From: Escherichia phage mEp013
DNA: 52,961 bases
Sequence record: PP180002
Direction: 5' to 3' (one strand)
Shown here: positions 16,457-44,094 of the stretch, piece after piece
How the letters are laid out: every line of letters begins with the position of its first letter
Position numbering within the stretch: the first letter of the stretch is position 1
The notes under the pieces: model-generated
The model's input: only the letters and a program-made list of their open reading frames with translations
Databases searched by the model: none
Told to the model about the DNA's origin: nothing
Made by a program: the position numbers and the translations under genes

Positions 16457-16940
16457 CAGGTTACTGGCCTGCGTTTATGTCGCCGTTTTCGTGATCATCA
16501 ACCTTATTGTTAACCATTGCGGCCCGTGGGTGATTCCGATCACTACGGTAGCCGCTGTGTGTGTCAATATGATGATCCGTGACTTCCTGTTGTATGACGG
16601 CGGCCTTAAATGGTCGGCTACAACATGCGCAGCCGCTGGCGCAATTACGGTGCTGATAAATTACGATGCCGGTATGGTGGCGATAGCGTCATTAGTTGCG
16701 GTTGTTTCCGGTGCGCTTATTTCTGGCGGCGTTTACCGGGTTTTACCTGATGATTTCGATTCTAAGCGCTGGCCTGCAAATATAGCGTCCGCCATTGGCG
16801 ATGCGTTAATTTTCCCGACGCTATCGTTTATGGCATTTATGCCTGAAATATCAGCTATGCAATTCATCTCAAAAATGGCAGCGGTAACGGTGATCACGAT
16901 CATTATGCGCCGCTATTTCACGTTTGAGGGCAAAAAATGA
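16437..16940 (+). CDS. YhhQ/DUF165 (VUT-family) queuosine-precursor transporter-like membrane protein
   Basis: Polytopic; motifs resemble YhhQ family (IPITTVAAVCVNMMIRDFLLYDGG, RWPANIASAIGDALIFPTLSF); family call from memory. Confidence 0.5.
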   Translation: MKKVAIDRLLACVYVAVFVIINLIVNHCGPWVIPITTVAAVCVNMMIRDFLLYDGGLKWSATTCAAAGAITVLINYDAGMVAIASLVAVVSGALISGGVYRVLPDDFDSKRWPANIASAIGDALIFPTLSFMAFMPEISAMQFISKMAAVTVITIIMRRYFTFEGKK

Positions 16941-17701
16941 GCAAGGCTAAACACTGGTTAAATAACTGGCTTAGAAGTTGGGTTGTATGGTCGCTGTACG
17001 ACGGCAGCGGGTACGCCGTTAAAGATTGGGCGGAGGCTGGATATAAGTGCTATTGCTTCAACTATGACGGCGCAAATCACGGCGATTATGACGGGGTAAA
17101 AATAATTCATCCAAATATTGAATACGTTAACGTCTGGATTGATAGCCACTTCCTGGTAATGTTCTCCCCTGAATTGTCTGTTTATCCAGAGCCTGACATC
17201 ATCATTGGCTTTCCTCCATGCGACGATCTCGCTGTTTCTGGTGCTGCCTGGTTTTCTGTTAAGCGTGAAAAAGATCCTAACTTCCAGGTGAAGGCGGCGA
17301 ATAGCGCCAAACTGGTAGAAAAACTGGCGAATATGTATAACGTGCCGTGGATGGTGGAAAATCCGGTTGGCGTACTGTCAACGTTATGGCGCAAACCTGA
17401 TTTTATTTTCAACCCGTGCGCTTACGGTGGCTACCTGCCGGAAGATGACAAACATCCCGCTTTCCCTGAATACATCGCCGACCGCGACGCGTACACGAAG
17501 AAAACTTGTATCTGGTGTGGTAACGGATTTAAACAGCCGATTTTTAGACCTGTATCACTGACTGACGAACCTGGTAACAGTCAACAGCACAGAAAGTTAG
17601 GTGGCAAAAGCAAGCGCACTAAGATGATCCGCTCACTAACGCCGCGCGGCTTTGCCCGTGCTGTATTCCTTGCTAACCATGACCGCGCTTTACCGGACTG
17701 A
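16937..17701 (+). CDS. compact C5-cytosine methyltransferase-like protein (254 aa)
   Basis: Motif I-like LYDGSG, IV-like GFPPCDDLAVSG, VI-like ENPVG, C-terminal LTPRGFARA; ATGA coupling to YhhQ-like gene; short for a canonical enzyme. Confidence 0.5.
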   Translation: MSKAKHWLNNWLRSWVVWSLYDGSGYAVKDWAEAGYKCYCFNYDGANHGDYDGVKIIHPNIEYVNVWIDSHFLVMFSPELSVYPEPDIIIGFPPCDDLAVSGAAWFSVKREKDPNFQVKAANSAKLVEKLANMYNVPWMVENPVGVLSTLWRKPDFIFNPCAYGGYLPEDDKHPAFPEYIADRDAYTKKTCIWCGNGFKQPIFRPVSLTDEPGNSQQHRKLGGKSKRTKMIRSLTPRGFARAVFLANHDRALPD

Positions 17702-17860
17702 AATTTACAAAATGGCGTCATTGCGTGATGTGGATCACATAATGGCGCTTTTCACCTTGTTCTGACGTATCCATTTTGTATACTTCAATCAAGCAAAATG
17801 CTCTTTAAAAATCCGGCAGCGCTGAAATGCGTAGAAATCACCTGAAAAGGAGAGAGCATT

Positions 17861-18037
17861 ATGCCTTTTGATAATTACCAATGGCATGACGACTATGAAC
17901 GAGAAAGCGTCATGCGTGCAATGTGCAATGTATGCAGCACGAAGAAAGGAGACTGCAACGAGTGCAACGAATGTTTAGATCATTGGCTAAGGGCCGGACA
18001 CGCCGAAAGGCTGAACGAAACAGAGAATCAAAAATAA
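17861..18037 (+). CDS. small Cys-rich protein (58 aa)
   Basis: Hand-translated; CNVCSTKKGDCNECNEC cluster; RBS AAAGGAG. Confidence 0.4.
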   Translation: MPFDNYQWHDDYERESVMRAMCNVCSTKKGDCNECNECLDHWLRAGHAERLNETENQK

Positions 18038-18051
18038 TCGGGGTGGTTTTT

Positions 18052-18657
18052 ATGCAGAACCCTAAAAAACCCATAAGACGCCGTTGCAAGTGCTGCGGCG
18101 TTTTTTTTGAGCCTAAATATCATAATCAAACGTGGTGCAGTGATGAATGTCTGGAGGAACTGAAGTTTGACCAGTTATGCCGCGACCGAGAAAAGGCTAT
18201 GAAGGCTATGGAGCGGAAGAAACGCCGTGATAGCCAGCGTGAAGAACGCAACCGGAAGCGTAAACAGTTAAATCCGCGTAGTTATTGGATCAAACAAGTT
18301 CAAAATGTATTTAACGCCTATATTCGAGAACGTGACGCGCGCTTGCCGTGTATATCTTGCGGGACTTACTACGGTGAGCAATGCGGGTGGGATGCAGGCC
18401 ATTACAGGACGGTAGCCGCCGCCGGACACCTTCGCTTCAACGAGGATAATTGCCATAAGCAATGTAGGCACTGCAACCAGACACTAGACGGCAATATCGG
18501 AGGGTATCGCCCGGCACTGATTCGAAAAATTGGCCTCGCCAGGGTGGTAGCTCTGGAGAACAACAACGAAACTCACAAATGGACGATTGCAGAATGTAAG
18601 GAGCTAATAAACATCTATCAGGCTAAATTGGACGCCTTAAGGAGAAAGGCAGCATGA
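18052..18657 (+). CDS. ninG: NinG/Rap-family recombination protein
   Basis: Strong resemblance to lambda NinG as recalled (RRRCK, PRSYWIKQ, LPCISCGT, WDAGHYRT, HKQC..CN); ATG at 18052 with RBS. Confidence 0.8.
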   Translation: MQNPKKPIRRRCKCCGVFFEPKYHNQTWCSDECLEELKFDQLCRDREKAMKAMERKKRRDSQREERNRKRKQLNPRSYWIKQVQNVFNAYIRERDARLPCISCGTYYGEQCGWDAGHYRTVAAAGHLRFNEDNCHKQCRHCNQTLDGNIGGYRPALIRKIGLARVVALENNNETHKWTIAECKELINIYQAKLDALRRKAA

Positions 18658-19061
18658 ACGAATATACATTTAGCCTACCTTACCCGCCATCGAATAATCG
18701 CTATTACCGACATTCGCGCGGTTTTCACTATATCAGCAAAGTGGGGAAGGAATACAGGGAACAAGTAAGAGACATCATTGAGCTATTAAATTTAAATATT
18801 AACCTGCCTTGCCGACTGGCAATTGCAATTTACGCCGCGCCGCCGGATAACCGGATCAGAGATCTGGATAATATCCCTAAATGCCTTTTTGATAGCCTTA
18901 CTTATGCCGGATTCTGGATGGATGACGGGCAAATTGACTCAATAAAAATTGTCCGCTGCCGGAAGATAAAAGGCGGACGCTTGTTTATTAAGATCCGCGA
19001 ACGCGGCGACCTACTACCGGATATTGACGAATACGCGACTAATATGTGGGGTGAGCAATGA
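18654..19061 (+). CDS. rusA: RusA-family Holliday junction resolvase
   Basis: 135 aa; N-terminal LPYPPSNNRYYR signature; position after ninG. Confidence 0.75.
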   Translation: MNEYTFSLPYPPSNNRYYRHSRGFHYISKVGKEYREQVRDIIELLNLNINLPCRLAIAIYAAPPDNRIRDLDNIPKCLFDSLTYAGFWMDDGQIDSIKIVRCRKIKGGRLFIKIRERGDLLPDIDEYATNMWGEQ

Positions 19062-19240
19062 AAAACGAAATTAAAGATCTGCAAATAGATATTCAGCGCG
19101 ATGAGCATGATTTAGCTACAGTCAGACAAATCCAGGCTTTCCACATGAGAGAACTGCTTGCGCTGAAAGAGCTTGAAAGAAAGTTGGTCCAATCAATATC
19201 TGATCGTAAACGTCTGGTTGCTCGTTACGGGGGCAAATAA
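19058..19240 (+). CDS. hypothetical protein (60 aa, coiled-coil)
   Basis: ORF coupled between rusA and Q. Confidence 0.45.
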   Translation: MKNEIKDLQIDIQRDEHDLATVRQIQAFHMRELLALKELERKLVQSISDRKRLVARYGGK

Positions 19241-19962
19241 TGAATCTGGAATCAATTCTTAAATTCCACTTCCCAAAATCACCGCGTTTGTCAGATGAAA
19301 GCCGTGGCACGTCCCCGGATGCTCTTAATACTACTGATGCACTAACTGCCGCAGGTATGGCGCAATCGCGCGTAGAGCTTGGTTACAGCGCTTTTTTAGG
19401 GAAGATGGAACTATCACAAGCCGAAAAGCACAGGGCCGTAGTTTTGCTTACAGAGCGTTTAATGGCTATGGCAAAAGATTATGAATACGTTATGGAACTG
19501 GACGAGGCCAAACGCAATGATCTCATTATTCTTATTGCCGTTTTCGCGTTTCGGGATTATTGCCAGAGCGCCGCGACGGAAAAAACTTGTATGGAGTGCG
19601 GCGGATATAAATTTACGTTTGACGAATACGGGGAAAAACACCTTTGCAAAAAATGTAAGGGGCATGGGAAAGTTCTTAATCATTGCAAACAATGCAAGGG
19701 CCGTGGCGAAGTACCGGATAAAGCAGCCAGTGAAGCGGCGGAAATGCCAGTGTTCAAAACGTGCCAGCACTGCGGCGGGCGAGGGTACTCGCGTTTCCCT
19801 GTAGATCTTGTCCGGCAGGCTGTTAATCAGCTTGTTTTTCCGGTAAGCCGATCAACATGGTGGAAAAAATACCGGGTTTTCTATGAAGACGCCATTGCTG
19901 AATTGTTCAAAGAAGAGGCGCGGGCTGATAACGAAATTAAGCAGGTGACGCGGGGTGAATGA
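19240..19962 (+). CDS. Q: late antiterminator Q (lambda-type)
   Basis: Matches lambda Q as recalled (LESILKFHFPKSP, AAGMAQS, CQSAAT, zinc-finger CxxC..CxxC, GYSRFP). Confidence 0.8.
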   Translation: MNLESILKFHFPKSPRLSDESRGTSPDALNTTDALTAAGMAQSRVELGYSAFLGKMELSQAEKHRAVVLLTERLMAMAKDYEYVMELDEAKRNDLIILIAVFAFRDYCQSAATEKTCMECGGYKFTFDEYGEKHLCKKCKGHGKVLNHCKQCKGRGEVPDKAASEAAEMPVFKTCQHCGGRGYSRFPVDLVRQAVNQLVFPVSRSTWWKKYRVFYEDAIAELFKEEARADNEIKQVTRGE

Positions 19963-20162
19963 TGGATAAGCTGGAAATAAACGATCAGTTTGCTGTTATC
20001 TTGTTCGAAGATAAAACAGGCGGTGCATGGTGTAAGAAGGTCACTGGTGCGGAAGCGCGTTTAATATTAGGCATGGCAAGCGCGTTAAACGAAGGCGAAT
20101 TGCCAGCCATCCCTATTAAGCCTGTCAAAATTTACAAGCGTGGTGACGATGATGAAGCCTAA
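19959..20162 (+). CDS. hypothetical protein (67 aa)
   Basis: RBS GGGGTG; overlaps Q stop. Confidence 0.45.
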   Translation: MMDKLEINDQFAVILFEDKTGGAWCKKVTGAEARLILGMASALNEGELPAIPIKPVKIYKRGDDDEA

Positions 20163-20421
20163 ATTAAAAGAACATCTATTTGCAAAGCTGGTTAATGACC
20201 TGACATTATCCGCGCGGTTGTGCCGTGATACACAACAATTAAGGGCGTGGATAGCAAGGGATTTAAAAAAATATATTGAGCCTGGCGTGCCAGGTGGCGA
20301 AATCACAATGGACGAGGCCATCAAACGCCGTTCGGCTGATTGGTCGGTGAGTAACACCGGATTAACCGGATACATTGAAGGCTATAACGACTGTTTACAG
20401 GATCATAGCAATGAAAAGTAA
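20149..20421 (+). CDS. hypothetical protein (~90 aa)
   Basis: ORF 20140..20421; first ATG at 20149. Confidence 0.45.
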   Translation: MMKPKLKEHLFAKLVNDLTLSARLCRDTQQLRAWIARDLKKYIEPGVPGGEITMDEAIKRRSADWSVSNTGLTGYIEGYNDCLQDHSNEK

Positions 20422-20623
20422 CCGTAAGCGCATTGTAAGGGCATACGATAAAGCATTAAAGGCTTTTGATGATCTGCGACGCAATAAGCGCCAGCGCCGT
20501 AAATGGGCGCGGATGCTTGTAAGGGAATGGCATGGCGAGGACTATTTCCTTGATGCCAAGCACATGACGCAGGATGTAGCTGACATGTTAGCTGACGAGA
20601 ACGTTTATTATATGATGTGGTGA
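20411..20623 (+). CDS. hypothetical basic protein (70 aa)
   Basis: ATG at 20411 inside ORF 20375..20623. Confidence 0.45.
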   Translation: MKSNRKRIVRAYDKALKAFDDLRRNKRQRRKWARMLVREWHGEDYFLDAKHMTQDVADMLADENVYYMMW

Positions 20624-20627
20624 TAAT

Positions 20628-20993
20628 ATGCAAATAATCATTGATTATCTCTGCCATGCTGTGAATACGCTTTTTGGTTTTTATCAACAACCATTCCTCA
20701 AAGAATGGGATGAAATGCTTAATGACATCATCGACAAAGGGTTAATAGTTGAAGTAGGCGAGCTAACGATAAAATTCAATTACGAAGGAAAAGAATATGA
20801 AATATGGGTAGGGAATAGATGGTACTCGTACGGTCATATCTATTCAATTGGCGGTAAGTACATTAAACGCAGCCAGGAGTTCAGGCCGCGATTCCGCACA
20901 ATGCGCCGCCTGCGTGACCTGCATATGAATATATTTGAAAATCAGGAAACGTGTGAACTATTCAAGATCTACGGGGATAAATCATGGAATTAA
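20628..20993 (+). CDS. hypothetical protein (121 aa)
   Basis: ORF with RBS. Confidence 0.5.
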   Translation: MQIIIDYLCHAVNTLFGFYQQPFLKEWDEMLNDIIDKGLIVEVGELTIKFNYEGKEYEIWVGNRWYSYGHIYSIGGKYIKRSQEFRPRFRTMRRLRDLHMNIFENQETCELFKIYGDKSWN

Positions 20994-21214
20994 AAATCTG
21001 GCAGGCTATCGACGTAGTTGATAATGAATTGTCTATGTTCGCCACTAACGGGAAGCGCGTTGTGATCGCTACATGGACACGTAACCATGATGATATTGCT
21101 TTTCGTCGCGCTGCGGCGGAATTGCTTTTCTCTGATGGCGGCTACACGATGAACATCGCACAGCTTGCCAGAATGAAAGATGAAAAGCTGGTGGACAGCT
21201 ACACAACTGCATAA
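20984..21214 (+). CDS. hypothetical protein (76 aa)
   Basis: RBS GGGGA. Confidence 0.45.
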   Translation: MELKIWQAIDVVDNELSMFATNGKRVVIATWTRNHDDIAFRRAAAELLFSDGGYTMNIAQLARMKDEKLVDSYTTA

Positions 21215-21224
21215 CGGGGTGAAT

Positions 21225-21458
21225 ATGCGTATCTATGAGCACAAGCGGGATAAAACCCGCTTTTTTGTTCGTGCTGGCGTAGCGTACCAGTATCACGAAT
21301 GCGGATATATTGAGGCGCTTGCTTACGACCTGGATTTTGAGCAGGAAAAAGAATGGTTCGATTTTAAAATTTACCGGAAACGCAAACCAACTCGCGACGA
21401 ACGCCACGCTATCAGGGATTTTTTAATCAGTATTGAGCGATGGGAGACAGAGGAATGA
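21225..21458 (+). CDS. hypothetical protein (77 aa)
   Basis: ATG at 21225 with RBS GGGGTG. Confidence 0.45.
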   Translation: MRIYEHKRDKTRFFVRAGVAYQYHECGYIEALAYDLDFEQEKEWFDFKIYRKRKPTRDERHAIRDFLISIERWETEE

Positions 21459-21679
21459 GAACTAAGAAAGCTGCAGATCAGAAAGCGTTGGTTATAGCAA
21501 CAAGGGATGTCTCGTTATTCACTAAGGGTGAAGAGATAGATCTTAAATTGCTTTGGGGCATGTTTGAACCACACGAAAAACCGTGGTTCGTGCATGAAGA
21601 TAAGCAAGGAAATATGCGCGTAGTCGTGCCTGACAGTAAAAGCGATATATTTTTTTGGCATTCCAGATCCGTTACATGA
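21455..21679 (+). CDS. hypothetical protein (74 aa)
   Basis: ATG at 21455 with RBS GAGGA. Confidence 0.45.
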   Translation: MRTKKAADQKALVIATRDVSLFTKGEEIDLKLLWGMFEPHEKPWFVHEDKQGNMRVVVPDSKSDIFFWHSRSVT

Positions 21680-21736
21680 CGGTGAGTTGTTGGCTGTATT
21701 GTTGATTTCTGATGCTGTTACTTATAAGGGTTAAAG

Positions 21737-21964
21737 ATGAAAGTAAAATTCTTGCACGATCACGGTTATCCGTCACTGAAACAGGTTGTTGGCAAGGTCG
21801 TTAACGTCGTTCATAGTGATAATGTCACATGTATGATTAACGGTGCTGACCTAATTGCCGCTGGCGCTGATGACCATTACATCAATCAGGAATGGTCGTA
21901 TACGTTCAGCCTGGGCGACTTCGTTGGCGACAAGGGGCGCGGGCTGGAAGTAGTCGAGGGTTAA
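21737..21964 (+). CDS. hypothetical protein (75 aa)
   Basis: RBS AAGGG. Confidence 0.45.
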   Translation: MKVKFLHDHGYPSLKQVVGKVVNVVHSDNVTCMINGADLIAAGADDHYINQEWSYTFSLGDFVGDKGRGLEVVEG

Positions 21965-21968
21965 CATC

Positions 21969-22217
21969 ATGGACGTTTACGAAGATCTATACCTCCAGAC
22001 AAACACATGCACTTTTTATTTTGTTAAAAACGGCGTCGTATATCGCAGTGATGACGGGATAGTAATAAAGGAGTGGCTATTTAAAAGCAAAGACCTACTT
22101 GAAGATCTTGTCTTCGCTGGTGTGTTCCGTAAACGTCCTGCCAACCTGGAAGAAGAAATGTTGATAGAGGTATATCAAAATGAAAATCAGGGTAAGTTAT
22201 TTCCGGGCGAAAGATAA
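21969..22217 (+). CDS. hypothetical protein (82 aa)
   Basis: RBS GAGGG. Confidence 0.45.
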   Translation: MDVYEDLYLQTNTCTFYFVKNGVVYRSDDGIVIKEWLFKSKDLLEDLVFAGVFRKRPANLEEEMLIEVYQNENQGKLFPGER

Positions 22218-22431
22218 GGCAACAGGAAAGCAGATGGCGATCCTGGTTAACGAGGCGCGTTACATGTTTGTGCTTCAGCCGTGGTGTGTTGTAGACCTTA
22301 ACGACAATTGCCGCCGTCACGCTGCGCGGAGTGCGGTAGGCATGAAAGGCTGGCAACCGCGCGACATGGAAAGCTATTGTGAATGGAAGCTGATAGCAAA
22401 ATACACGGTCGATTATAAGGGGGTTTTCTGA
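22180..22431 (+). CDS. hypothetical protein (83 aa)
   Basis: ORF overlapping upstream gene. Confidence 0.4.
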   Translation: MKIRVSYFRAKDKATGKQMAILVNEARYMFVLQPWCVVDLNDNCRRHAARSAVGMKGWQPRDMESYCEWKLIAKYTVDYKGVF

Positions 22432-22433
22432 TT

Positions 22434-22649
22434 ATGTTTGCAAGGTGCGTTTATTCTGACACTTCGTGCTTTACTGTTGGGGAATTATATAGCGTTGACC
22501 TTCTTAACGGGTGTAAGCGCGGCGCTGGCGGTATTCATTATGTAAAAGATAATGATGGCGATGCGTGGCAATTTTACGGCGATTATGCAAAAGGGGTTGT
22601 TAAGGGTAGTTTTGATAATCGTGTAATGGCGCGTTTCGTTAAGTGGTGA
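22434..22649 (+). CDS. hypothetical protein (71 aa)
   Basis: RBS AAGGGGG. Confidence 0.45.
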   Translation: MFARCVYSDTSCFTVGELYSVDLLNGCKRGAGGIHYVKDNDGDAWQFYGDYAKGVVKGSFDNRVMARFVKW

Positions 22650-22658
22650 GGTAGTGTC

Positions 22659-22955
22659 ATGAGCCGGAATCAGAGATACCAGTGCACATATTCACGATGT
22701 AGCGCGTTTTTTAAGAATGGCAAGATCTACGAAGTCGGCGCGGCATTGGTTGACGCAAAGAATCAGGAATATATTCACGCCATTACTGACGACCAGGGCC
22801 AGTTATGGCGATTTTATAAGATGGGGTGTGGCACGGCGCTTGTTTATGCGCGTGCTGGTGGTGGCGAGTGGGTAGCGCCAATCATTAAGACGACGCGAGA
22901 AACAATTAAAATATTTCTTGATGCTGGTGAACTGGTAAAGGTTAGCGACCTATGA
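22659..22955 (+). CDS. hypothetical protein (98 aa)
   Basis: RBS GTGGTGAGG. Confidence 0.45.
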   Translation: MSRNQRYQCTYSRCSAFFKNGKIYEVGAALVDAKNQEYIHAITDDQGQLWRFYKMGCGTALVYARAGGGEWVAPIIKTTRETIKIFLDAGELVKVSDL

Positions 22956-23128
22956 ACGAGATCGAAGATGGCATCTATTTGCATAAGGTATTTGACATCG
23001 CCTATTTGGTAAGAGGCGAAGAGGTGATGATAAGGAATGAAGATGTTCCTTATTGGGAATTAAGCGACATGGATCGCGAACACATGCAAACATTGCTTGA
23101 TAACGGACTGATATACAGAACTGCGTAA
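22952..23128 (+). CDS. hypothetical protein (58 aa)
   Basis: Hand-translated; ATGA overlap with upstream gene. Confidence 0.4.
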   Translation: MNEIEDGIYLHKVFDIAYLVRGEEVMIRNEDVPYWELSDMDREHMQTLLDNGLIYRTA

Positions 23129-23136
23129 AGCCGTAT

Positions 23137-23165
23137 TTGTGGGTCGAAAACAAACAGATTAAAAT
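23137..23165 (+). promoter_or_regulatory. candidate late promoter (PR'-like), TTGTGG-17-TAAAAT
   Basis: Hexamers with 17-nt spacer ~30 nt upstream of a strong terminator and the holin gene; lambda PR'-qut-tR' style. Confidence 0.45.
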
Positions 23166-23193
23166 ATTACCTAACAATGCGAAACTGTAACTA

Positions 23194-23217
23194 CCCGGCC
23201 CCGCGCCGGGTTTTTGC
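23194..23217 (+). terminator. rho-independent terminator (tR'-like) before the lysis cassette
   Basis: CCCGGC-CCCGC-GCCGGG 6-bp GC stem followed by TTTTTGCTTT. Confidence 0.7.
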
Positions 23218-23235
23218 TTTGTTGGAGGAAAATCT

Positions 23236-23436
23236 ATGTTCGACAGAATACGGGAGGCGTGTGCGTATGTGACTGGGGCCGTAACTGCTTTTTTCGGCGC
23301 TATAACCATCAATGACGTCGCTGTTTTCGTTGGTATCTTATCAACCATAGGCACATTTGCCGTTAATTATTACTTCAAATCACAGGAGAACAAGCGAGCG
23401 CAAGAGGAACACGACGCGCGAATGGGGAATAAGTAA
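23236..23436 (+). CDS. holin
   Basis: 66 aa, two hydrophobic TM segments and charged C-terminus; directly precedes endolysin; RBS GGAGGA. Confidence 0.7.
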
Positions 23437-23437
23437 A

Positions 23438-23929
23438 ATGATTAGCCAATCGCTGAAAAACAAGATTGTTGCGGCGGCGGCTGGTGGGGCGATCGCTATT
23501 GCGGCGGTGATGATTAAGCCATTAGAGGGCGTGGAATACGATCCTTATCGTGATGTTGTTGGTGTATGGACTGTTTGCTATGGTCACACAGGAAAAGACA
23601 TTATGTTGGGCAAGACATACACGCAATCAGAATGCGATGCTTTGTTAAATAAAGATCTACACAAGACCGCAAAAGCGATTGACCCATATATCAAAGTTGA
23701 AATATCAGATTTTACCCGCGCTGCACTTTATTCATTCGCCTATAACGTAGGCGCGACCAACTTCAAAACATCAACCTTATTAAAACTGCTCAATGACGGC
23801 AAGAAATCAGAGGCGTGCGCACAGCTTAAGCGCTGGGTATACGCTGGCGGTAAGAAGTGGCAAGGCCTGGTAAACCGCCGCGAGGTTGAATATGCCGTTT
23901 GCGAATGGGGGGAAACGTGGACAAGGTGA
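23438..23929 (+). CDS. SAR endolysin (T4-lysozyme-like muramidase with signal-anchor-release domain)
   Basis: N-terminal Gly/Ala-rich weakly hydrophobic segment then lysozyme-like catalytic region ([21 protein letters not shown]); ATG at 23438 two nt after holin stop. Confidence 0.8.
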
Positions 23930-24387
23930 AGGCGTTAATTATCGCCGCTGTTGTTTGCATCATTGCCAGCCTTACCGCAGTAACATGCCATTACCAGAGT
24001 GAGGCGACAAGGTTACAGGAAGAATTAACGACCACGCAAGGCGCACTGAAAACGGCAAGTAACACTATTCAGCAGATGAAGGAGCGAAACGCCGAACTGT
24101 CAAAACTTGATAAGAGGTATCACGATGAGATTAAAGCAATCAGATCTGACATTGCCGATCTGCGCACTGGTATTGATAACGGCACTATCAGGCTGCGCGT
24201 CAACGCAATACCCGTGCGAGTGTCCGACTCCACCGGATCCGCCAGCACCATTAATGGAGCCTCCTGTAGACTCACTCCCGACGCTGAATCGGCTTATCTA
24301 TCCCTCAGAGAACAACTAAAAGAGAAAGACGCGAAGATAACCGCGCTTCAGGGATACATCAAAACGCAGTGCTTACGCAAAGAATAA
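23905..24387 (+). CDS. Rz-like i-spanin
   Basis: N-terminal TM helix then coiled-coil; overlaps endolysin 3' end; contains embedded Rz1 frame. Confidence 0.7.
24125..24319 (+). CDS. Rz1-like o-spanin lipoprotein, embedded in Rz in +1 frame
   Basis: Lipobox LSGC; proline-rich mature region ([16 protein letters not shown]). Confidence 0.7.
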   Translation: MRLKQSDLTLPICALVLITALSGCASTQYPCECPTPPDPPAPLMEPPVDSLPTLNRLIYPSENN

Positions 24388-24723
24388 CAGTGCGTTGACG
24401 TGTCGCCGTTTCCTCCAGCCAGCCATAACCGGGCCAATCCTTCCCGCGAGCGACGGCGGAAATTCAAAAACACGTAATACCGGGTAAACAACCTCATTAA
24501 CAGGTCCGGCGCTACCTGGGTAGAAGAAAGCGCCATTACTCACCTGCCATGAGTAGGAAGAGCGTTCGGATCTGTTTATCAGAGATGTTGAGCAGGTCCA
24601 GTTTTATAAAATTCCAAAAACGGTACTAACTCAGCGCCGTTTTTAGTGTTTTATAGCTGTTTTCACTCCCTGCGGTGTCCAGTTTTGCGGGGGTTATATT
24701 TTTCAGGATAGAGGAATATTCTG

Positions 24724-25257
24724 ATGGCTAAGGCTAAAGGCATTAAGTTGCCTCAATTCAAAGTCCCGCTCTTTGAGCATACAACAGTTTTCTTTTGCCC
24801 GACCCGCGAGATGTTCTATGAATTTTGCGAAAAGGCAGGGATCCCAATCGAACCTGATTTCGAACTGGCAGGAGGATTGACGCTTACTTGCACGGGTGAG
24901 AAAGGCGGTAACTTCTACGTGATCGCAGTATTCGATAATGAGTTAGGAACGCTAACACATGAAGTGGCACATGCTACATTTCATTGTTTAAGTGATGTTG
25001 GCGTAATGGCTGCAACAGATCCCAGCCATCCAGCCAATGAGACTTACGCTTATATGATTGGGCGCATGTTTGATGCTTTTTATCCTGTACTACTTGAAAG
25101 CATAGACGCACAAGCCGCAGCTATCCGGGCGCAACAAGCGCTAGAAGAAGCTGAAAGAAAAAAAGAAGCCAAAAGAAAAGCAAAAGCAAAAGCAAAAGAG
25201 CCGCCAAAAGTGGAAAAATACATTGTTGCGTGGCGTAGCCGTTATGCAATGGGATGA
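24724..25257 (+). CDS. HExxH-motif protein (putative zinc metallopeptidase-like), lysine-rich C-terminus
   Basis: HEVAH motif; KAKAKAK tail; RBS GAGGAA. Confidence 0.5.
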   Translation: MAKAKGIKLPQFKVPLFEHTTVFFCPTREMFYEFCEKAGIPIEPDFELAGGLTLTCTGEKGGNFYVIAVFDNELGTLTHEVAHATFHCLSDVGVMAATDPSHPANETYAYMIGRMFDAFYPVLLESIDAQAAAIRAQQALEEAERKKEAKRKAKAKAKEPPKVEKYIVAWRSRYAMG

Positions 25258-25729
25258 TTATTTCAGTTATAACCAAGAAACAGGGGATCTAATGTGGAAG
25301 GTGTACAGATCGCCAAACGCAAAGCCAGGTGACATTATCAGAGGGACTAAATCAAGAAACAAGCATTTGCGAGTGAATTTAAACAGAAAATGTTATCAAG
25401 TTCATTGCATTATTTGGGAAATGCACAACGGCCCAATCCCTGAAGGTTATGAGATAGACCATATTGACCATGATAGATGGAATAACAGGTTATCTAATTT
25501 GAGGCTTGTTGATGATGAAGGCAATGCGCACAATATGAGTTTGTTTAAAACCAATACAAGCGGTGTTTCCGGGGTGGGCTGGCATAGTCAACGTAAAAAA
25601 TGGCGTGCAACAATATGGCATAAATGCAAACAAGTATCACTTGGTTTGTTTGACAATTTTGATGATGCTGTAATGGCACGGCGTGAAGCCGAGATTAAAT
25701 ATGGCTATCACCCAAATCATGGTCATTAA
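25244..25729 (+). CDS. HNH endonuclease with AP2-like DNA-binding domain (terminase-associated)
   Basis: HNH motif YEIDHIDHDRWNNRLSNL; AP2-like SGVSGVGWHSQRKKWRATIW; upstream of terS. Confidence 0.75.
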   Translation: MQWDDYFSYNQETGDLMWKVYRSPNAKPGDIIRGTKSRNKHLRVNLNRKCYQVHCIIWEMHNGPIPEGYEIDHIDHDRWNNRLSNLRLVDDEGNAHNMSLFKTNTSGVSGVGWHSQRKKWRATIWHKCKQVSLGLFDNFDDAVMARREAEIKYGYHPNHGH

Positions 25730-43387: not shown

Positions 43388-44092
43388 ATGCGCAGCATAC
43401 CTACAGAAATGATTATTGATTCCGTGGATGCCGGAGTCGGCGCGGTAATTGACTTGTTTGAATTAGACCTCACGCCCCTTGGTGGCGAGGTTATCCGCTT
43501 CCATTCCGGCGCTAATGGCTATTACGGCCCGGTTATCTGGAAGGGAGTGGCTTACAACAGCTACCCAATCGAGGCAACTGGCTTCGAAATGAAAAACGAA
43601 GGCGTTTACTCACGCCCCCAAATGGTAGTAGCCAACATTGGCGGGCTAATCACCGGGATGAACAACGATTTCAATGACCTGCGAGGAATGAAGGTTACGC
43701 GCCGCCAGGTGGAAGTAAAATACCTGGATGCCATCAATTTCCCCAACGGCAACCCGGATGCAGATCCATCTATCGAGGCAGTATCTTTTTACGTCGTTGA
43801 GGCGATGAGCGAAGAAACAGCCGACCAGGTGCAATATGAACTGTCAACGCCAATTGATGCTGACAAGGCGGTTATCCCGGGGCGCACAATTCTCGCTGAC
43901 GTTTGCCAGTGGCAATATCGCGGCGACGGTTGCAGATACAGTGGCGGCCCCGTAGCTACTGACAAAGACGAGCCAACAAGTGATCCAAAGCTGGATAAAT
44001 GCAGCCACCGCCTGAGCGGTTGCCGTTTGCGTTTTCCGCGTCCTAATCCGTTACCAATTTCCTGTTTCCCAGGATCTAGTAAGGTAGGTTGA
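43388..44092 (+). CDS. L: minor tail protein, lambda gpL-like
   Basis: Matches lambda L as recalled (TGM..D...L.G..V.RR, YRGD.C.YSG, DKCS..LSGC..RF). Confidence 0.85.
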   Translation: MRSIPTEMIIDSVDAGVGAVIDLFELDLTPLGGEVIRFHSGANGYYGPVIWKGVAYNSYPIEATGFEMKNEGVYSRPQMVVANIGGLITGMNNDFNDLRGMKVTRRQVEVKYLDAINFPNGNPDADPSIEAVSFYVVEAMSEETADQVQYELSTPIDADKAVIPGRTILADVCQWQYRGDGCRYSGGPVATDKDEPTSDPKLDKCSHRLSGCRLRFPRPNPLPISCFPGSSKVG

Positions 44093-44094
44093 TT

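Follow-up and report, generated by a model that had tools for sequence, protein, structure and literature searches.

A candidate Q-utilisation site separated from the Q gene by thirteen small open reading frames in Escherichia phage mEp013

In Escherichia phage mEp013 (sequence record PP180002; the window, here and below, is the whole stretch of 52,961 nucleotides (nt) that was analysed), a promoter-terminator module at 23137-23217 on the + strand probably serves as the Q-utilisation site (qut), where the antiterminator Q would load onto a paused polymerase. The thirteen small open reading frames (ORFs) that lie between the Q gene and this module would then be delayed-early genes co-transcribed with Q. 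The sequence supports assignment of the module to the PR'/qut/tR' architecture of the lambda-Q family, and it is the only conserved module of this kind in the genome. The parts, a lambda-family Q and a PR'/qut/tR' module, are known; the arrangement, in which Q is not adjacent to the module, is new and extends to the whole phage family. We infer promoter activity, pausing, Q binding, the timing of expression and the function of the ORFs from the sequence.

The module upstream of the holin gene

The elements that carry this reading are the following.

19240-19962, + strand: Q antiterminator gene, 240 amino acids (aa), with an extra CxxC pair (Pfam, PHROG and alignment)
23137-23165, + strand: candidate PR' promoter, with the -35 hexamer TTGTGG (23137-23142), a 17-nt spacer and the -10 hexamer TAAAAT (23160-23165)
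23148-23159, + strand: candidate Q-binding element (QBE), the spacer core AAACAAACAGAT, near-invariant (diversity 0.056)
23173-23178, + strand: AACAAT, candidate sigma70-dependent pause inducer (-10-like) at predicted +1 to +6, invariant in 55 sequences
23193-23217, + strand: candidate tR' intrinsic terminator, ACCCGGC-CCCGC-GCCGGGT, with a 7-bp G+C-rich stem and a 5-nt loop (23193-23211) and a T-tract reaching 23217

The module occupies 81 bp of the 107-nt gap (23129-23235) between the thirteenth ORF and the holin gene. A preliminary description of this DNA had placed a PR'-like promoter and a strong terminator directly upstream of the holin gene, and both are found there, as TTGTGG and TAAAAT 17 nt apart and as a hairpin with a T-tract; its coordinates all proved accurate on re-check. 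The AACAAT hexamer begins 7 nt after the -10 hexamer (TAAAAT-attacct-AACAAT), the hairpin follows 15 nt further on, and a pause is predicted near 23188-23189. The leader fold has a free energy of -19.7 kcal/mol (z -3.0), the predicted terminated leader RNA is about 44-45 nt long, and the hairpin at 23193-23217 is the top-ranked terminator-like site between positions 17000 and 26000. A holin-proximal terminator is also annotated in the records of related phages and equals TERM_5 of phage mEp021. Judging from the order of TERM_1 to TERM_5 in the mEp021 GenBank record, TERM_5 is probably the 't5' that is called experimentally demonstrated in passages of a published study (PMC11893012). A search of the whole window at Rfam gathering thresholds matched no family.

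By nucleotide sequence, mEp013 is a member of the mEpimmI group of coliphages, with mEp010 and mEp021 as relatives. Positions 19240-23440 are 88-93% identical to mEp010, mEp044, mEp554, mEp021, mEp515 and MagusPhagus, and related prophages occur in 35 of 5426 complete Escherichia coli genomes. The family comparisons reported here cover 54 mEpimmI genomes or loci, 55 aligned module sequences and 50 distinct Q-holin intervals. Among the aligned modules, diversity is 0.000 at the -10 hexamer, 0.056 in the spacer core and 0.18 at the -35 hexamer; it is zero or near zero in AACAAT and in both arms of the terminator stem, and 0.20 in the loop, a value like that of third codon positions (0.16-0.34). 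The module occurs in one copy per genome, always abutting the holin gene and 1.9-6.7 kb after Q (54 of 54 family loci). The mEp013 copy is 100% identical to that of mEp010, and among 2.9 million viral contigs the module core was found in the mEpimmI family only.

Passages of PMC11893012 describe the mEpimmI phages as Nus-dependent, as non-lambdoid by recombination and serology, and as regulated by a lambda-like N-type system (Gp17 with three nut sites) and a 'Q-lambda-like' one; they include Gp17/nut antitermination for mEp021. Q is annotated as a putative late regulator in published mEpimmI records, and in those passages of PMC11893012 that deal with mEpimmI no mention was found of a late promoter, a qut site or a separation between Q and its promoter.

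The lysis cassette (23236-24387) follows the module and is presumed to hold the first genes of the late operon.

23236-23436, + strand: holin (Pfam PF16080, 6.7e-15)
23438-23929, + strand: lysozyme (Pfam PF00959)
23899-24387, + strand: Rz, given by its ORF bounds (Pfam PF03245)
24107-24319, + strand: Rz1-like ORF embedded in Rz (ORF list)

Q and the thirteen ORFs downstream of it

The Q gene matches Pfam PF03589 at 104 bits (cut-off 26.7; E = 4.6e-30) and PHROG 127, 'anti-termination protein Q-like' (2.9e-79). Its product aligns with lambda Q (lambda 43887-44507) at 34.5% identity over 99% of the query (tblastn), and the zinc cysteines C149, C152, C175 and C178 are invariant in a seven-sequence alignment with the Q proteins of lambda, P22 and four others. 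Because of these profile matches, the full-length alignment to lambda Q and the retained zinc cysteines, the protein is assigned to the lambda-Q family and, by these comparisons, is a true lambda-Q homologue. The searches also returned Q matches of 207 codons, equal to lambda Q in length and in identity to the query, from contigs that are short or poorly covered (L102-L121, L126, L128, L133, L135 and L142) in assemblies of unrelated organisms (Psychrobacter, Bradyrhizobium, Kitasatospora, Oceanobacillus, Segatella metagenome-assembled genomes and others), for which contamination with lambda DNA is the likeliest cause.

As described previously, Q ends at 19962 without any intergenic space, its TGA stop overlapping the ATG of the next ORF at 19959 (ATGA). 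Thirteen + strand ORFs, whose starts were refined with PHROG profiles and the annotation of relatives, occupy 19959-23128.

19959-20162, + strand: ORF1, 67 aa
20149-20421, + strand: ORF2, 90 aa
20411-20623, + strand: ORF3, 70 aa
20628-20993, + strand: ORF4, 121 aa
20984-21214, + strand: ORF5, 76 aa
21225-21458, + strand: ORF6, 77 aa, core gene with an embedded terminator-like hairpin
21455-21679, + strand: ORF7, 74 aa, C-terminally truncated
21737-21964, + strand: ORF8, 75 aa
21969-22217, + strand: ORF9, 82 aa, 88% identical to mEp021 gp41
22180-22431, + strand: ORF10, 83 aa
22434-22649, + strand: ORF11, 71 aa
22659-22955, + strand: ORF12, 98 aa, deletion fusion
22952-23128, + strand: ORF13, 58 aa

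The earlier count of thirteen tightly packed ORFs of 58-121 aa between Q and the holin gene was borne out when sizes and packing were checked again. Non-coding sequence amounts to 86 of the 3166 nt of the block, 57 of them in one gap (21680-21736); stops and starts overlap or abut, and a G-rich Shine-Dalgarno-like sequence precedes most starts. The ORFs also proved to be conserved as coding sequences, with substitutions showing third-codon-position bias in all thirteen. ORF4, ORF5, ORF6, ORF8, ORF9 and ORF10 are present in 53-54 of the 54 genomes, ORF11 and ORF12 are rare, and in ORF13 the invariant columns number 1 of 177.

Across the 50 distinct intervals, the block measures 1.9-6.7 kb and carries 8-27 ORFs drawn from 29 ORF families, several of which are duplicated within a genome. 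The mEp013 block differs from those of the published mEpimmI phages in being among the shorter ones, with about 2 kb of mEp010 (L002 5480-7526) deleted. ORF12 is a fusion of two genes created by this deletion: it is similar to ORF11 in its N-terminal part and ends in the final 34 residues of mEp010_72. Of the 97 aa of its family protein, ORF7 has kept only residues 1-67. The 57-nt gap at 21680-21736 is due to the truncated 3' end of ORF7 and, being a remnant of that gene, was rejected as a regulatory site.

Within ORF6, codons 7-15 (21243-21270) contain a perfect hairpin of the intrinsic-terminator type, AAGCGGG-ATAAAA-CCCGCTT, followed by the T-run TTTTTGTT, with a fold of -16.5 kcal/mol (z -3.9). 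Third-codon diversity is 0.034 in the hairpin versus 0.229 elsewhere in ORF6, and the near-invariant third positions therefore make it look like a selected RNA or DNA element inside the coding sequence; an internal terminator, a processing site and a translational element are candidates for its role. Promoter candidates that the weight matrix placed inside the block (21789, 20749 and others) were discarded, as they are not conserved (diversity 0.17-0.27).

Some relatives (L004 4623-4739, which is mEp554, and L021 14079-14094) have an AT-rich intergenic region in the middle of the block, with a perfect TGTGA-N6-TCACA palindrome resembling a CRP site and a predicted terminator. This region is absent from mEp013 and suggests separately regulated cassettes in some family members.

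The preliminary description had proposed that the thirteen proteins act in host takeover or against host defences, and this idea found no support. None of the ORFs matches Pfam, and ORF1-ORF10 match nothing in NCBIfam or PADLOC; 12 of the 13 match PHROG families, all of unknown function. Relatives of ORF8 in rV5-like myophages and of ORF3 in Sasha/Solent-like siphophages (tblastn) belong to virulent coliphages and are all hypothetical proteins. Searches of 5.8 billion proteins traced ORF9 to E. coli alone, and ORF4 to prophages of E. coli and Salmonella alone. The structure model of ORF4 is good and has no informative fold neighbour, and that of ORF9 is poor (predicted local distance difference test score, pLDDT, 65). 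Likeness to known anti-defence or host-takeover families (anti-CRISPR, Ocr, Ard and similar) was seen neither in sequence, by Pfam, NCBIfam or PADLOC, nor in the fold of the ORF4 model, a dedicated anti-defence library not having been searched. According to passages of PMC11893012, gp41, the mEp021 homologue of ORF9, was detected by mass spectrometry in virions purified on caesium chloride. At least a protein of the ORF9 type is therefore made, and its detection in virions does not bear on the proposed role.

Comparison with lambda, P22 and other phages encoding Q

Two cis elements are required in the lambda-Q family, a QBE lying between the -35 and -10 hexamers of PR' and a -10-like pause element within the stretch that is transcribed first (PMC6606751). 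The P22 annotation, which derives from experiment, puts the transcription start on the first A of AACGAT, a hexamer 7 nt beyond TAAATT, and the terminator at +31 to +59; lambda is laid out in the same way. In an alignment with the corresponding sequences of lambda, P22, Proteus phage V3, SF10 and HK225, the mEp013 module coincides at the -10 hexamer and at AAC(G/A)ATG, and like P22 and HK225 it has its terminator only a short way from the start. With lambda and P22 it shares the order and spacing of a putative -35 hexamer, spacer, -10 hexamer, 6-7-nt gap, AAC(G/A)AT at +1 to +6 and intrinsic terminator, as well as a position upstream of the lysis genes, and the Q proteins are homologous (34-40% identity, zinc cysteines kept). 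Judged by its motifs, the module combines a -10-like candidate pause element in the expected position, a nearby intrinsic terminator and a location upstream of lysis and morphogenesis genes.

The module differs from its counterparts chiefly in its distance from Q. In lambda and P22 it lies near Q, whereas in mEp013 it is 3.2 kb away (1.9-6.7 kb in the family) with 13 (8-27) genes interposed, 3168 nt and the thirteen ORFs separating the Q stop from the -35 hexamer. The -35 hexamer of mEp013 is also much weaker, the spacer (the presumed QBE) is unrelated in sequence, and there is no clear lambda-type -35-like TTGACT before the pause element.

The rule that PR' follows Q directly, which the preliminary description had taken from lambda, applies widely. 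Four annotated phages show the same Q-adjacent arrangement, and a survey was made of 50 distinct genes of the Q-lambda family from prophages of many Enterobacterales genera. In 30 of the 50, T[AT]NNNT-N6-7-AAC[GA][AC]T starts 42-65 nt after the Q stop, mostly with a terminator after it. A further 18 have the same layout with variant pause hexamers (AATGAT, AATAAT, AACGTA and others) and a terminator within about 150 nt, and two prophages have neither form of the motif. PR' therefore lies within about 150 nt of the Q stop in lambda, in P22 and in 48 of the 50 surveyed relatives. The exact hexamer AACAAT was met in one Pectobacterium prophage.

Two other known arrangements resemble the block in part. 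The lambda nin region, upstream of Q, is a run of small, packed, same-strand ORFs that are partly dispensable and mosaic, are transcribed by N-modified polymerase and contain internal terminators. The mEp013 block is likewise a run of small, tightly packed, mosaic ORFs on one strand, but mEp013 also has NinF, NinG and RusA upstream of Q, and the block studied here is additional and downstream of Q. Shiga toxin (Stx)-converting and other lambdoid phages also carry several kb of accessory genes between Q and the lysis cassette; there, however, PR'/tR' stays beside Q, and stx and the morons are downstream of it, late and Q-dependent, according to passages of PMC6266700 and PMC7547250, whereas the mEp013 module is downstream of the block.

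Proposed circuit, alternative explanations and implications

The proposed circuit begins upstream of Q with the following element.

17798-17835, + strand: candidate nutR2, formed by the boxA-like GCTCTTTAA and a small hairpin whose loop is rich in A, about 1.4 kb before the Q gene (sequence and fold)

Its diversity is 0.046 versus a median of 0.11, and a long hairpin terminator at about 17714-17755, the equivalent of mEp021 TERM_4, lies just before it. Passages of PMC11893012 place nutR2 downstream of the methyltransferase gene, and 17798-17835 is a candidate that fits the published nutR2 of mEp021. Nearby, the part of ninG that encodes the conserved CKCCGVFF motif contains a hairpin followed by eight T residues in a row (18080-18120). 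Few stretches of the region vary less, and the records of several relatives annotate a predicted terminator there.

Rightward early transcription would be modified at nutR2 by the N-like Gp17, pass ninF, ninG, rusA, a 60-codon ORF and Q, and continue past Q through the thirteen ORFs to end at tR'. The block is read as delayed-early genes co-transcribed with Q because it consists of real, packed, conserved genes that leave no room for a promoter and terminator after Q. An extended delayed-early block between Q and PR' had been proposed in the preliminary description; its architecture, its real and conserved ORFs and the lack of room after Q hold, and we only infer its timing and Q-dependence. 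At the module, the candidate sigma70 promoter TTGTGG-17-TAAAAT would start RNA at about 23173, and AACAAT at +1 to +6 would hold sigma70, so that polymerase would pause near +16/17. Without Q, transcription would stop at the hairpin and yield only an RNA of about 45 nt. Q would diffuse 3.2 kb downstream, bind the conserved spacer AAACAAACAGAT and load onto the paused polymerase, which would then read through into the holin, lysozyme, Rz and structural genes.

Several observations weigh against this circuit, and most concern the promoter. The -10 hexamer TAAAAT matches the consensus at 5 of 6 positions, and the promoter was missed by a strict consensus scan because TTGTGG matches at only 3 of 6; the -35 hexamer is weak (TTG only) compared with TTGACT, TTTACT or TTTACA at canonical PR' promoters. 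In a scan with a weight matrix of our own, the promoter comes 8th among about 52,900 + strand positions and first in the Q-holin interval; that the same matrix puts the immunity-region promoter at the top suggests that it is sensible. In 13 of the 55 sequences, including that of the viable MagusPhagus, TCGCGC, which lacks TTG, replaces the -35 region and the score falls to the top 0.3%. Two unrelated forms of the sequence upstream of the module core (GCCGTATTTGTRG... and ...CATAATCGCGCATAA...), equivalent to 23137-23147, occur in the family (L005, L020, L025 and others), and as they break at about -26 from the predicted start, the whole sequence ahead of the presumed Q-binding spacer, with the -35 hexamer, seems to be exchanged by recombination. 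The spacer has no sequence similarity to the lambda QBE, and its identification as a Q-binding element is for that reason only a guess. With regard to the block, the conserved ORF6 hairpin means that it may not be a single simple transcription unit. The presence of the ORF9 homologue in purified virions could suggest late expression, although it says little on timing because the early protein Ssb is in the same preparation.

Three alternatives were weighed, and all are less likely than a Q-utilisation site at 23137-23217 preceded by a delayed-early block. It is unlikely that the module lacks a meaningful promoter and works only as a terminator and a place for Q to load, where early polymerase pauses at AACAAT through retained or rebinding sigma70 and the late genes are a Q-gated extension of the early unit. 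The weak -35 hexamer, replaced in 13 of 55 sequences while -25 to +45 is conserved, would fit such a site, but TAAAAT is invariant and stands at the exact canonical PR' distance from AACAAT, and few sites anywhere in the type-A genomes are better sigma70 matches. N-modified early complexes, moreover, resist pausing and termination and would not need Q. As to precedent, 82Q engages a promoter-distal sigma70-paused complex in vitro (PMC4914094), and passages of PMC4604602 report that sigma70 can access elongation complexes from solution in vivo; with a long nascent RNA, however, NusA acts against promoter-distal engagement of Q (PMC4914094).

A related proposal, which we consider very unlikely, applies at least to the 13 of 55 members without the -35 hexamer: no late transcript would start at the module, Q would capture sigma70-paused early elongation complexes, and the whole rightward genome would form a single transcription unit, controlled by the N-like antiterminator at first and by Q thereafter. 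If true, promoter-distal loading of Q, which so far has been shown on engineered templates only, would have a natural example here. In a milder variant of this proposal, the constitutive leader RNA of about 45 nt would have a regulatory role in lysogens as a small RNA, which is what has been reported of the PR' leader of the Stx phage.

The block may instead consist of independently expressed accessory cassettes (morons), some of them expressed from the prophage, with their own promoters and with the ORF6 hairpin as an internal terminator; this too seems improbable. The interval is a hotspot of gene flux, with paralogues within a locus among its 29 ORF families and 8-27 ORFs per genome, it has a conserved internal terminator-like hairpin in ORF6, and some relatives have the mid-block AT-rich region with TGTGA-N6-TCACA and a predicted terminator. 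In mEp013, however, that region is absent, 86 nt are non-coding in all, starts overlap preceding stops, and the promoter candidates of the block are not conserved.

The remaining alternative places the true Q-dependent promoter right after Q, where one PR'-like motif is indeed found.

19945-19985, + strand: PR' look-alike GTGACG-16-TAAGCT-7-AACGAT, straddling the Q stop and ORF1 codons 3-9 (DKLEINDQ) (pattern scan)

The thirteen ORFs would then be late genes, like stx and the morons of Stx phages, and Q-modified polymerase would read through the hairpins at 21243 and 23193. The elements of the look-alike are correctly ordered and spaced, it stands where 48 of the 50 surveyed relatives keep PR', many family members have GTGACA there (a 5/6 match to the -35 consensus), and the first strong terminator downstream would be the conserved ORF6 hairpin. 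Yet the pattern is expected 1.55 times per strand by chance, lies within ORF1 codons, and varies at the regional background rate (diversity 0.107; median 0.11). TAAGCT scores poorly, outside the top 12 weight-matrix matches of the interval, and no terminator follows within 1.2 kb, unlike at every surveyed PR'. The motif is disrupted or absent in at least 12 family loci. It vanishes wherever another sequence takes the place of ORF1 or ORF1 has diverged: 7 loci have CAAGTT, 9 have ACAACA...AACATG, and the sequence is unrelated in mEp021 and mEp044, viable laboratory phages that keep the same Q and the same holin-proximal module. Lost in viable relatives, evolving at background rate and expected by chance, 19945-19985 was rejected as an essential late promoter, and a late promoter at this position is the least probable of the explanations considered.

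The textbook model of Q antitermination has Q load at a site embedded in the promoter, and takes this site to be next to the Q gene. Echols and colleagues in 1976 and Burt and Brammar in 1982 are said to have found lambda Q to be preferentially cis-acting, which was attributed to the adjacency of Q and its site. In this common family of gut coliphages, Q lies naturally 2-7 kb from its presumed site, which provides a ready test of the effect of adjacency on the timing and strength of the switch and a natural experiment on the cis-preference described for Q by classical genetics. Placing Q away from its site is a real but modest variation on a well-known circuit. For annotation it advises caution, as genes downstream of Q are not necessarily late genes. 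The hypervariable small-gene slot would be expressed when Q is made, before the lysis and assembly genes, and is therefore a sensible place to seek host-directed or counter-defence functions, none of which has been demonstrated.

Three further features of the window lie outside the Q-holin interval. Between Rz and the next ORF is a 336-nt gap (24388-24723) that contains some of the most conserved 30-40-nt stretches of 16900-25300 (24417-24456 and 24496-24537), a terminator-like AAAACGG...CCGTTTT near 24620-24645 and only short minus-strand ORFs; the gap may hold a small gene that escaped annotation or a conserved element that does not code for protein. An HNH endonuclease gene (PF13392 with a weak AP2 domain) is located at 25223-25729, between the lysis cassette and the packaging genes. 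Two of the top sigma70 weight-matrix scores of the window come from 51955-51988, where TTGACT stands twice in tandem before AACAATAAAAT.

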